A stretch of DNA of 64,000 nucleotides, taken from assembly GCA_964016885.1 (NCBI GenBank), contig OZ024741.1:147622001-147686000 (forward strand). Reading direction: 5' to 3'. Made by a program: the position numbers and the translations under genes. Positions 11,801 to 50,437 of this stretch are shown here, one piece after another; the first letter of the stretch is position 1, and every line of letters starts with the position of its first letter. Under the pieces are notes generated by a model, which saw only the letters and a program-made list of their open reading frames with translations, was not told the DNA's origin and searched no databases. The DNA is from Eledone cirrhosa (lineage: Eukaryota).

Positions 11801-11991
11801 GGAACGAGTGAGACCCCGACGGCTGAGCTCAAGCCGTTTCGACGGCTAATTCTGGACAGAATTAGCCGTCGAAACGGCTTGAGCTCAGCCGTCGGGGTCC
11901 CACTCGTTCCTATTACCCACTCTATTACCCTAAGTATTGAGTACTTTGGTGCGGTATGGTCCACCTGGTTCCTTACCACATTTCCTTCGTT
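11801..11991 (+). repeat. fold-back palindrome element in (TA)n, copy 1
   Basis: 54-bp arms 11801-11854 / 11857-11910 with one mismatch and a 2-nt loop, then an 80-nt tail; (TA)n on both sides. Confidence 0.9.
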
Positions 11992-12733
11992 ATATATATA
12001 TATATATATATATATATATATAGTGACGAAACATAAGTCATTTGCATGAACTCATAATCCTTTATTTACTGGTATATATATTTCGATGATAGCCATTGAA
12101 TGGCTATCATCTCATCAGGCAGTTAGTCAGTTCTTAGATATGCGAGCTCTGGTGTTGATGGTATCAGAGCCTTGGGACATATCAATATATATATATATAT
12201 ATATATATATATATATATATATATATATATATATATATATATATATATATATACATATATATACATATATACATACATACATATATATATTTATATATAT
12301 ATATATATATATATATATATATATATATATATATATATATATATATATTTATAAATCTACACACATACACACACACACACACACACACAGAGACACACAC
12401 ACATATATATATATATATATATATATATATATTTCAAGGGTAACCAATCTTAAAGAGAGAGATTGAGATAGGAGAGGAGAAGAGAGATTGGTGAATTAGT
12501 TAGAAGCCAAAGCGTAAAGGCATGTGCTCAATGTGCAATATGTAGTGGAAAGCAGCTAGGTGGCTGGGTTCATGCAGAGGTTAGGTGCACAGAGCTGGAA
12601 ATATTCATTAGTTAAGCAAAACAAGACCACAAATTTCACAAGTAAGACATTATTAAAAGATTGTCAACATAGTTTTAGTTTGATGTAAGGACTGTAGAGA
12701 ATAAGAATAATAATATTAATAATAATAATGTCC

Positions 12734-12852
12734 GTTTACAATTGTTTCGCTACTCCATATAATGTTTCTGGATCAAATGATTATATATCATTATTGATCT
12801 GGTTCAGTTGAAAATAATTAACATAGGTAAACATAGAGCAGCTCATCGGAAC
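12734..12852 (-). ncRNA. type I hammerhead ribozyme, U4C core, long stem II insertion
   Basis: gtt-CCGATGA-gctgctctatg...tatggagtagc-GAAA-caattg-TA-aac; the core is deleted in the plus-strand arm (~15030). Confidence 0.6.
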
Positions 12853-13499
12853 TTCAAAAGGAATATAAATTAAAATAAGTAAAGAATGTTACATGAATGT
12901 AATGTTCCATATATTGGTATTTCACTATGGTGTCCTGGGTATATCTATTGTCTGCCATAGTCGAGCAGTATTCTTCTGTCGAGGCTGCATTGTGTGAGAT
13001 CTGCCTATGGGTAACAAGATGGCCGCCAATGGACATATTTACCTTACTAATTAGAGGGTGGTTTCAGGGGAAGTAACTCCTCGAGAGATTAGAAATTGTG
13101 GGTAGTTTATAGTTAAGAAGTGCTAATTTTTAAATTTTTTAATTGAGAGACAATGTAAGGGAGGTAACTTATAATTATCTAAGTTAGCTATAACTATTTA
13201 ACTTATTAGCTATAAGTAAAAATGGGGCTAGATGACTATGTTGGATCAAATATTCTGTTGGCGAAGGAATTAGCCCTTCGATGTTGACAGCTAATAGTTA
13301 CCTCCGTTCTATCGTTAATCGGTAGAGGTCGTGATAGAGTTATATAGTATGCTTCGGTAAGACAGAGGTCACAAGAGTTTCTTCATCCATTGAACGGTTG
13401 GGCCCTAACCAAGATATCCCATGTTAGTGAGTGTTCAATGTTGGTTAATTTAAGGTTTTTAATGAACCTAGCTAGAGATGTCGAACATCTGTTGTTAGG

Positions 13500-14186
13500 G
13501 TCTCAGAAGGAAAAAGAGAGCGCGTTATAGCGTGCCTTAAAAGGGTTAGAGGTAGAGCCGATATAGGAGCTGGTATGCGAAGCAGTTTTAACTGTGCACC
13601 TATAAACTATATTGGGTGTCAGGCAATGTCCATTTAGTGGGCATGCGTTAGGGTGACGGCAGTTGCAGTTACTTCTGCGGTTAGTGAGAGTAGGGTTGTT
13701 TAAACTATGCGGTTGGTCCGTCCTAGAAGGATTAGATGGGGGAGGTGTGCTACTAGAGTAAGTATTGGTGTAGTGGCGTGGTGTATTTGATGGGGGGTGG
13801 TACCGCGGTGTGGGAGTTATACTGCCTTAGTTATGATGGTTACTGAATGCGATGTGGCTAGCTAGGGTAGGTGTTGTGGAGAATGATATTTTAATGTTGT
13901 TTTTATTAAAGAGTTTGTAATATCTATGGTTGGGGGGGATGTTTAGATAGGATAGAGAAGAAGCGTTTAGGGATATTAGTGGCTAGATTAGATGAGAATG
14001 GGGAGTTAAGCCAGGTGATATTTCTAGGCCTATTCCTTCTAGGGGTTCTAGTGGAGTTGGTAGGGGCCTTCATAGGGTTATTATTACCTGGGCATTTGTT
14101 ATTTGTCATCCCATTGCTCATTCCTATTCTAGGGTTGATTTTTAGTTTGCTACTTGGAGTGGGAAGTAGGCTACTGCCACCATTAA
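13500..14186 (-). pseudogene. PLE RT-thumb linker and GIY-YIG endonuclease fragment
   Basis: Minus translation NITWLNSPFS...CNCRHPNACPLNGHCLTPNIVYRCTV...SYIGSTSNPFKARYN, homologous to ORF 47588-48790. Confidence 0.85.
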
Positions 14187-48790: not shown

Positions 48791-50072
48791 TATCTAATAC
48801 TTTACCAATTTAAAATCCTTTTTCTCAAAAGCATATATATATATATATATATATATATATATATATATATATATATATATATATATATATTTCTTTAAAA
48901 ATATACCCATCTTTCTACCTTATTTCAATGTTATTTATTATACATTATATAATACTAGTTACTCATTCTATATCATTCTTATTTATCACTTCCCTTTCTT
49001 CCTTTTTTCCTTTTTCTTTTAATTTCTAACCTCTAATCTGTACCTTTTCTTCCTAAATACTTCTCAATTCTCATTATTACTCACCACAATATATCCACTC
49101 TTCCTTCTTCCATCATATCACTGGCCATAAAACTTACTATTACCCTTTTAAATACTTTATAGTATCACCTTTAAAAATCCTTCGTAAACATAAACATTTT
49201 TTTTTACGTTAGATTATTCATCCTCAATTCATTATTGTTTTCTCCCTTTCATGCTCGTCTAACTTTTACATATTACACATCACAATACACAAAAACAAAC
49301 TTAAACCTTAACTAATCTCCTTTATTACATTATATTATTACCATTAGAAAATACTTCATAAACATACATATTCTGATGTTAGAGTCTTTTCTTCCTTAAA
49401 CACTATCTCCTTCTTTGCTTTCTGCGCTCATTTGTAAACAAACTATTTACATATATTACACATACATATTACATTACATAAAAACAAACTTAAACACTAA
49501 CTAATTCCTCTAAATTCATAATTCATCCACTCTTCTACTTCTTTTCACATTATATCTTTAATAACATTAATATTTTTATTTTAATAATACATATCAACAA
49601 TTTCTTTCCATCGCACATATTATTAAACCCTTCAATATTCAAACCTTAATTTAATATTATTCTTAATACATATTAACAATTTCTTTTCATCGCACATATT
49701 ATTAAACCCTTCAATATACAAACCTTAATTTAACATTATTCTTAATTTTCTCTCTTCATTAATTTTCAAGTTCTTTTAATTTATATATTATCTTCCAACG
49801 GCTTTTTAACCTCTCTCTGTAAAACAATATATTTTTCACAGTTATAAAGGCTATCTCTCTCTTTCTATCACCCATCTCTCCTCCTATCTCATCCTGCCTT
49901 ACTATACTCCTCCCCCTCCATTCTTTACTCTCATCTCCTCCTCCTTTTCATCCTTTCCAACCCCCCTCATTTTTTTTCCCAATATCACACATCAATCTTA
50001 AACTAATTTTCATATGTTGATTTAAAACTGCACTATTCACAAGTGTTTTTTAACCTTCATATCATGTCTCCC

Positions 50073-50143
50073 TATTTTATCTGACGAAAACGCAAATGTC
50101 ATCGCATGATGATATTTGTTTTTGAAATGCGCATAATAAAATA
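50073..50143 (+). ncRNA. type I hammerhead ribozyme with palindromic stem III
   Basis: tattttat-CTGACGA-aaacgcaaatgtcatc.gcat.gatgatatttgttttt-GAAA-tgcgca-TA-ataaaata; 8-bp stem I. Confidence 0.85.
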
Positions 50144-50240
50144 CATGGAACTCTTTTAACCATCTTTTGATCTTATATATATATATATATATATATATAT
50201 ATATATATATATATATATATATATATATATATATATATAT

Positions 50241-50437
50241 AAGGAAGGAAGTGTGGTAAGGAAACTGGTGGACCATAACGCACCAGAGTACTTGTTACTT
50301 AGAGTAGTAGAGTGGGTAATAGGAAAAGAGTCAGGACCCCGACGTCTGAGCTCTGGCCGTTTCGATAGCTAGATCTGAACGCAGACCTAGCTGTCGAAAT
50401 GGCCGGAGCTCAGCCATCGGAGTCCTGACTCTTTTCC
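50241..50437 (-). repeat. fold-back palindrome element in (TA)n, copy 3 (diverged, opposite orientation)
   Basis: Arms within 50322-50437; tail 50241-50321 homologous to copies 1 and 2. Confidence 0.85.

Follow-up and report, generated by a model that had tools for sequence, protein, structure and literature searches.

Penelope-like elements (PLEs) are the closest described relatives of the repeats considered here. In the available text of two studies, they are presented with an inverted 5'-truncated copy at the 5' end, a tail of 30-40 nucleotides (nt) on one side only and palindromes at the inverted joint (PMC8557442, PMC3846280). For the Hydra clade, Craig et al. (2021) list the motifs DKT, CxCx5C, CxxC and CxH and a TA target (PMC8557442, in part). 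The PLE hammerhead ribozymes of Cervera and de la Pena (2014) are of type I, with a long stem II, a short stem I, a palindromic loop III and a U3-A8 variant; the accessible part of that paper also has motifs on opposite strands 100-700 bp apart and a circular-template model for tandem copies (PMC4209133). The anole Poseidon element PAc cuts and extends both strands of an AT-rich target in vitro, with two internal start sites that mark the limits of the tail; ribozyme cleavage was not needed for insertion and the protein is predicted to dimerise (Frangieh et al. 2024, PMC11167929, available sections). The origin of the inverted ends and one-sided tail, and hammerhead cutting in vivo, are called open in the portions at hand of these papers (PMC8557442, PMC4209133, PMC11167929, PMC3846280). 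Here we analyse a window of 64,000 nt from Eledone cirrhosa (assembly GCA_964016885.1, contig OZ024741.1, positions 147,622,001 to 147,686,000, forward strand), which contains three palindromic elements inserted in (TA)n, together with their family in the 3.0 Gb genome. The palindromes are probably (at about 0.8) terminal-repeat copies of an intact PLE with Hydra motifs, formed when a (TA)n target is cut, its two ends prime reverse transcription from two start sites, mostly on a single RNA, and the two complementary DNAs (cDNAs) are joined.

A preliminary description of the window predicted a non-palindromic parent carrying the core strand of a hammerhead. Such a parent exists, but the form foreseen for it, with a perfect GACG..CGTC stem II, gave 0 matches. 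A core search with a short gap returned 21 matches, all of them joints or chimeras with other hammerhead families and none a parent. A wider gap returned 82, about 10 of which have one common upstream sequence with a CUGAGGA-type core; these represent the 3' end of a retroelement that has reverse transcriptase (RT) and GIY-YIG-type motifs. Among 69 matches to the continuation of the tail no recurrent parent was evident, and one (L165; loci labelled L001 and so on are fetched stretches of the same genome) matched the master. The protein search found many copies with open frames of ~784 codons. In the 20 master stretches fetched around protein matches, the arm of the palindrome is present in all but L245; most show arm and tail directly 5' of the open reading frame (ORF), and the tail sequence continues into the 5' leader of the ORF. 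The parent is a tandem unit of 3,531 bp with an ORF of 717 amino acids, ATG at +232, and a 3' region of ~1.1 kb. Numbering takes the A of AGTCC as +1, which places the predicted ribozyme cut after +41, the tailless end at ~+59 and the tail end at ~+140. The masters are young, intact and near-identical between tandem units, and the youngest short subfamily carries diagnostic bases of the young master.

The single ORF consists of an RT with an RDDG core followed by a GIY-YIG motif, VIY..YIG (both located by eye). A local Pfam scan of the ORF and its fragments gave 0 matches; among 120 listed homologs with 38-54% identity, many contain PF26215 or PF28514, and PF01541 occurs in one. The architecture is that of endonuclease-bearing PLEs, with tandem units as pseudo-long terminal repeats (pseudo-LTRs), an inverted 5'-truncated copy and a tail at one end. 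DKT replaces DKG in HSDKTG, the CxCx5C linker reads CNCPDRSIC, and CxxC and CxH stand around conserved E and N in CNLC..E..LLN..CKH. For the CCHH motif, which the Hydra endonuclease lacks in described members, inspection by eye showed only one Cys inside the GIY-YIG core. Insertion in (TA)n and a detectable hammerhead also agree with the Hydra clade. However, the motif near the N terminus is RWR where described members have RWK, and the 3.53 kb unit is longer than the <3 kb general among them in the available text (PMC8557442), a tendency and not a strict rule. These motifs, from which the clade was assigned, point to a Hydra-like PLE. At a head-to-head joint of a master array (L249-L250, G000:C1:91.489-91.493 Mb), ~60 tandem copies of a 55-bp piece of the ORF (unit 1755-1812) were seen, which suggests repeated slippage at a cDNA end. 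At L203:5626-8325 (minus strand) the 3' region and ribozyme of the studied family are preceded by an RT fragment of another, Poseidon-like PLE, as a nested insertion or a chimera.

The terminal repeat of the parent holds a complete type I hammerhead, with the CUGANGA, GAAA and NUH core and stems I, II and III. Stem I has 5 bp, stem III has 5-6 bp and a palindromic loop, and stem II consists of a G-C pair, an internal loop and 6-8 bp below a loop II of about 36-40 nt. This is the type described in the available text of PMC4209133, from which it differs in the dimensions of stem III and loop II. Over 20 parents 94.5% of cells are paired, and the minimum-energy fold of the young master shows all three stems. 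The core pair is C3-G8 in six parents and U3-A8 in six, while C3/A8 is unpaired in eight; the youngest master has the U3-A8 form, already described as a PLE variant (PMC4209133, in part).

The preliminary description correctly took each arm of the short copies as the 3' half of a type I hammerhead, namely a stem II strand, GAAA, stem III with its palindromic loop, GUC and a stem I strand. The short copies start in loop II and therefore hold only this half. In the three window copies the complete core is absent, as the core strand and the 5' strand of stem I lie upstream of +1. No hammerhead was found among the 150 of 172 Rfam matches listed, which is expected because the copies hold half a ribozyme. 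The suggestion that the palindrome is a fold-back on a perfect stem II hairpin does not agree with the parent, whose stem II is not perfect and where the centres fall in loop II, ~18 nt before GAAA. The long perfect stem of the short copies is a product of inversion and not a ribozyme stem.

The arms of copies 1 and 2 and the tailed arm of copy 3 were placed by BLAST of the natural master unit against the window. Copy 1 occupies 11799-11992 (plus strand). Its inverted tailless arm, 11799..11857 (minus strand), corresponds to master +2 to +59, and its tailed arm, 11857..11992 (plus strand), to +5 to +140; the latter contains the 3' strand of stem II, GAAA at 11871-11874, stem III and the 3' strand of stem I, with the predicted cut after 11893. 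Its tail, 11912..11992 (plus strand), would be the stretch bounded by two reverse-transcription start sites, a reading taken from the accessible text of PMC11167929. Copy 2 (40992-41185, plus strand) has an inverted tailless arm at 40992..41050 (minus strand, +2 to +59) and a tailed arm at 41047..41185 (plus strand, +2 to +140), with GAAA at 41064-41067 and the predicted cut after 41086; 4 nt at its centre are common to both arms. Copy 3, at about 50240-50439 on the minus strand, belongs to an older subfamily: its tailed arm (50240..50380, minus strand; predicted cut between 50341 and 50340) is 82% identical to the young master, and its tailless arm (50381..50439, plus strand) is inverted relative to the tailed one. 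Similar (TA)n runs adjoin both flanks of all three copies, for example at 11761..11800 beside copy 1. The places of the three related elements and their ~80-nt tail had been given correctly. The word 'perfect' applies to copy 2 (57/57 arm matches, no spacer) and nearly to copy 1 (55/56, 2-nt spacer), but not to copy 3 (52/59, 4-nt spacer). Where copies 1 and 2 differ, the change stands symmetrically in both arms, as had been claimed, except for one arm mismatch in copy 1.

An exact two-ended pattern gave 16,673 strand matches in the whole genome for the canonical class, which has one tailed and one tailless arm, and this number is a lower bound for the family. The reversed control gave 0 matches, so the family is not a product of chance. 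There are 161 loci of a tail/tail class and at most 213, unrelated matches included, of a tailless/tailless class. Thus ~98% of copies combine one tailed with one tailless arm. Long insertions, whose arms range from 117 bp to >16 kb and of which either arm can be the longer, obey the same one-tail rule: in eight single-stretch long insertions and in group B, a tailed end and a tailless end both run into TA, the tailed end of L252 being seen by alignment only. Non-LTR retrozymes are reportedly small non-coding tandem units with a complete hammerhead in each (PMC7229834, in part); the copies described here are dispersed, inverted and hold half a ribozyme, and their tandem parent is coding.

Several unusual arrangements were also seen at single loci. 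One short copy (L364) has the first codons of the master ORF captured between its two ends. At L034, L044, L173, L186 and L195 a short copy is appended head to tail behind the ribozyme regions of other families, which suggests template jumps between PLE RNAs. At L041 a truncated copy of the studied family is fused to a ~400-bp tandem repeat, possibly retrozyme-like, in which each unit has a CUGAUGA motif. The palindromes of a family E (L031, L185, L196) have centres near their own CUGAUGA core, and the L031 copy has a 14-nt tail motif in common with the studied family, a candidate protein-binding motif.

If the ribozyme cuts in vivo, some palindromes are expected to have their centre at +42, a prediction made beforehand. 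A search for shorter copies gave 1,884 matches. In the first 50 of these short copies +42 is the commonest arm end, at 21 of 80 placed arms (20 arms were unplaced), and both arms end there in 8 copies; the peaks at +22 and +35 are microhomology deletions through an AGCCGT repeat. Genome-wide, the pattern in which the two arms stop at +42 around an A/T insert has 245 strand matches, or roughly 130-140 loci because most match twice, against 1 match for the same pattern placed 4 nt upstream. In these cut-site copies both arms run to the last templated base, with 0-2 nt between them. The position +42 would correspond to the end of a self-cleaved RNA, and a class centred exactly on the predicted GUC cut site likely shows, indirectly and on the record of the genomic copies, that the ribozyme cuts in living cells. 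In vivo evidence for PLE hammerhead cleavage is stated to be absent in the available text of PMC4209133. In the consulted sections on Poseidon PAc, no RNA reads ended at the cut site (PMC11167929), whereas genomic copies do so here.

The other sharp 5' boundary of the short copies is +1. It sits in loop II at TTAGT, a sequence like the initiator (Inr) motif. Most arms end between +1 and +8, some of them a few bases upstream, and untemplated bases often stand between the arms; 25 young copies have 22 distinct centres. The 5' end of the second family, B, also falls on a motif, CAGTT, and the complete ribozyme of that family follows ~105 nt further on. One PLE terminal repeat is reported to contain an Inr-like motif (PMC3846280, in part). 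We suggest that +1 may be a transcription start. A transcript starting there would be without half of the first ribozyme, which would therefore be incomplete and uncut.

It is important to compare this reading with other ways in which a palindrome could arise. A palindromic non-autonomous element of the miniature inverted-repeat transposable element (MITE) type would be copied as a unit, with its symmetry kept by gene conversion and its centres remodelled by cruciform breakage. Centres do get remodelled, as the many shorter copies made by microhomology deletion show. However, in the 97 copies parsed from 120 loci, same-side arms differ by 8.18 and opposite-side arms by 8.17 positions, while the two arms of one copy differ by 3.34. 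There is neither a left/right lineage nor a fixed left/right difference, in agreement with the earlier proposal that the symmetry is regenerated and not inherited, and the ends do not form separate lineages. Moreover, the centre is nearly always unique to one young copy, both ends recur in a parent that is a retroelement and not palindromic, and repair would have no reason to stop at +1 or +42. A MITE-like origin is therefore extremely improbable. The preliminary description had instead proposed snap-back of the cDNA: a tail-primed cDNA would fold near the RNA 5' end, copy itself to an internal TA-like site and join the other target end. Self-priming is also favoured for head-to-head PLE palindromes in the accessible text of PMC3846280. 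It accounts at once for the one-tail rule and for the matching arms: of the 60 canonical copies that could be assigned (37 of 97 could not), 58 have arms of one haplotype, where random pairing would make ~44 differ. The tailed arm is also more often the longer one: this holds for 37 of 68 short copies, against 19 with a longer tailless arm and 12 with equal arms. Snap-back cannot, however, explain a tailless arm that holds parent sequence which the tailed arm lacks, as in these 19 copies and in L208, where the tailless arm has ~480-600 bp absent from the tailed arm and lacks the tail; since each arm has sequence that the other lacks, neither can be the fold-back of the other. Nor can it give the five insertions where the 5' ends of the studied family and of hammerhead family B meet head to head (L033, L038, L042, L182, L199), which turned up through the chance of the search pattern, so that their count gives no frequency. 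It also fails for tail/tail copies with different haplotypes (5 of 23) and for the cut-site copies with both arms complete, and the parent has no long perfect stem II on which to fold. The copy-specific centres with their untemplated joints and the strongly unequal arms of long insertions also speak against it. We consider snap-back improbable; in distinction to the proposal of PMC3846280, the data favour two cDNAs.

These two cDNAs would usually be made off one RNA, to judge from the sequences of the arms. It could also be that two separate RNAs, held in an asymmetric protein dimer, make the arms, and that the arms match only because expression at any one time comes mainly from a single master locus. 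In favour of this, some insertions are of mixed family or subfamily, 2 of the 60 assignable canonical copies have two haplotypes, and the arms of L208 differ by 10%. However, arm haplotypes agree in 18 of 23 assignable tail/tail copies (22 of 45 unassigned), so that 22% of these are mixed against 3% of canonical copies (Fisher p = 0.016, small numbers). Other RNAs were therefore available, yet rarely used by canonical copies, and the use of two RNAs as a rule seems unlikely to us. The tailless/tailless copies, with agreement in 13 of 14 assignable cases (11 unassigned), do not differ significantly from the canonical ones. A further question concerns +1, which could mark the place where the RT halts, or where the RNA is cut a second time in loop II, and no transcription start. 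This would suit the observation that 0 of 21 long copies extending past +1 begin there, and the mixed base at -1 (T 57, G 22, C 15, A 5). However, long cDNAs cross +1 freely, which argues against a general stop, and the end of family B at CAGTT and the Inr-like motif of PMC3846280 (available text) also argue against this explanation, which we regard as unlikely.

The preferred reading, two joined cDNAs primed from both target ends, can be put as a sequence of steps. The PLE would cut (TA)n, and both target ends would prime reverse transcription at two fixed start sites, one RNA usually being read twice. Both cDNAs would extend to the RNA 5' end, which may be the +1 transcription start or the +42 ribozyme cut, and would then be joined head to head. 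Two-ended priming fits the in vitro behaviour of anole Poseidon (PMC11167929, in part). More speculatively, cleavage by the next ribozyme could strip the downstream start sites off a capped RNA, leaving mostly short palindromes; this could reconcile the absence of long copies starting at +1. Cleaved monomers, perhaps circular, could yield seamless tandem arrays. In its fullest form the proposal would have one RNA read twice from both break ends by an asymmetric dimer, with a 5' end set by a start inside the ribozyme or by the cut; the capped form would give the hairpins (tens of thousands) and the cleaved, possibly circular form the tandem masters. We put forward this fuller form tentatively, as possible and not as probable.

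Several points weigh against the proposed origin. The core C3/A8 is unpaired in eight of the 20 parent ribozymes, and masters of this kind weaken the step of next-ribozyme cleavage; covariation of the whole structure over the 20 parents is not above shuffles. Cut-site copies are not significantly enriched in the U3-A8 subfamilies (11:4 against 33:19, p = 0.55), and the genome-wide count has one control position. That none of the 21 long copies begins at +1 is not what a simple transcription-start model would lead one to expect, a cap-derived G at -1 is not diagnostic with so mixed a base, and the start is read from genomic copies. A search of sequencing runs listed no RNA run; four runs with contigs all belong to one study, which may be that of the source sample, and lend no independent support. 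Deletion of the centre after insertion can mimic a longer tailless arm and may explain part of the 19 in 68 cases, and the L208 arms are only 89.9% identical. The haplotype tests left out the 37 of 97 and 22 of 45 unassignable copies, the samples were taken from the first chromosomes listed, and the three class counts rest on patterns of unequal stringency.

The window contains other repeats of interest. At 41289-41602 a second palindrome-plus-tail element of another family lies in (TA)n, and each of its arms carries the 3' half of a GAAA-CCGG-UA hammerhead; it is probably the same process in another PLE family, and a further partial copy of that family is found near 42200-42381. At 12023-12150 (minus strand, core at 12118), a fragment with a complete minimal hammerhead ends in the TA run directly after copy 1, with relatives in L007, L022 and L163. 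Two further minimal type I motifs, of other abundant families, are located at 50081 (plus strand) and 53740 (minus strand), and a descriptor scan gave 44 such matches, some overlapping, across the loci and the window. Other inverted-repeat structures span 12717-15110, 21760-24133, 45769-46291, 52228-53275 and 54110-54295; those at 45769-46291 and 54110-54295 adjoin TA runs and may be head-to-head PLE insertions. A dispersed repeat like a short interspersed element (SINE), which we take to resemble octopus SINEs, occurs at 7404-7497, 15104-15495, 17737-17830 and 18812-19240, and a fragment of an RTE-like long interspersed element (LINE) begins near 50670.

The family shares with described PLEs the inverted 5'-truncated copy, the one-sided tail and the palindromes at the inverted joint, but its tail is ~80 nt compared with 30-40 nt, its minimal form outnumbers all else and its 5' ends are fixed at two positions (PMC8557442, PMC3846280, in part). 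The available text on the Hydra clade states that few further families were found, and it describes no large body of palindromes made of the repeat alone (PMC8557442). The family is like Poseidon PAc in its AT-rich target, in a tail bounded by two internal start sites and in the proposed use of both strands; in the accessible sections on PAc, however, no difference in start site was seen between the strands, whereas ~98% of copies here pair one long with one short start (PMC11167929). Motifs on opposite strands and tandem copies of possibly circular origin recall the model of PMC4209133 (in part). Our literature searches found no report of fixed 5' ends, of a 98% one-tail rule, of cut-site-centred PLE palindromes or of this family; most subscription papers and supplements were outside their scope, so that a Repbase or Dfam entry is possible. 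The architecture of inverted ends and tail is already known, and the mechanistic record of 5' ends, one-tail rule and cut-site class appears to be new.

To the questions of how PLEs make their inverted ends and one-sided tail, and of whether their hammerheads cut in vivo, this family gives countable genomic answers in the form of the 98% one-tail rule, the cut-site class and the mixed-family joints. Three natural ribozyme cores, C3-G8, unpaired C3/A8 and U3-A8, are found within one lineage, and the young intact masters are open to assay. Palindromic repeats of this kind are easily mislabelled as MITEs. For the genome of E. cirrhosa, at least 16,000 hairpins of ~55 bp could plausibly give rise to double-stranded RNA, to substrates for editing and to fragile sites.

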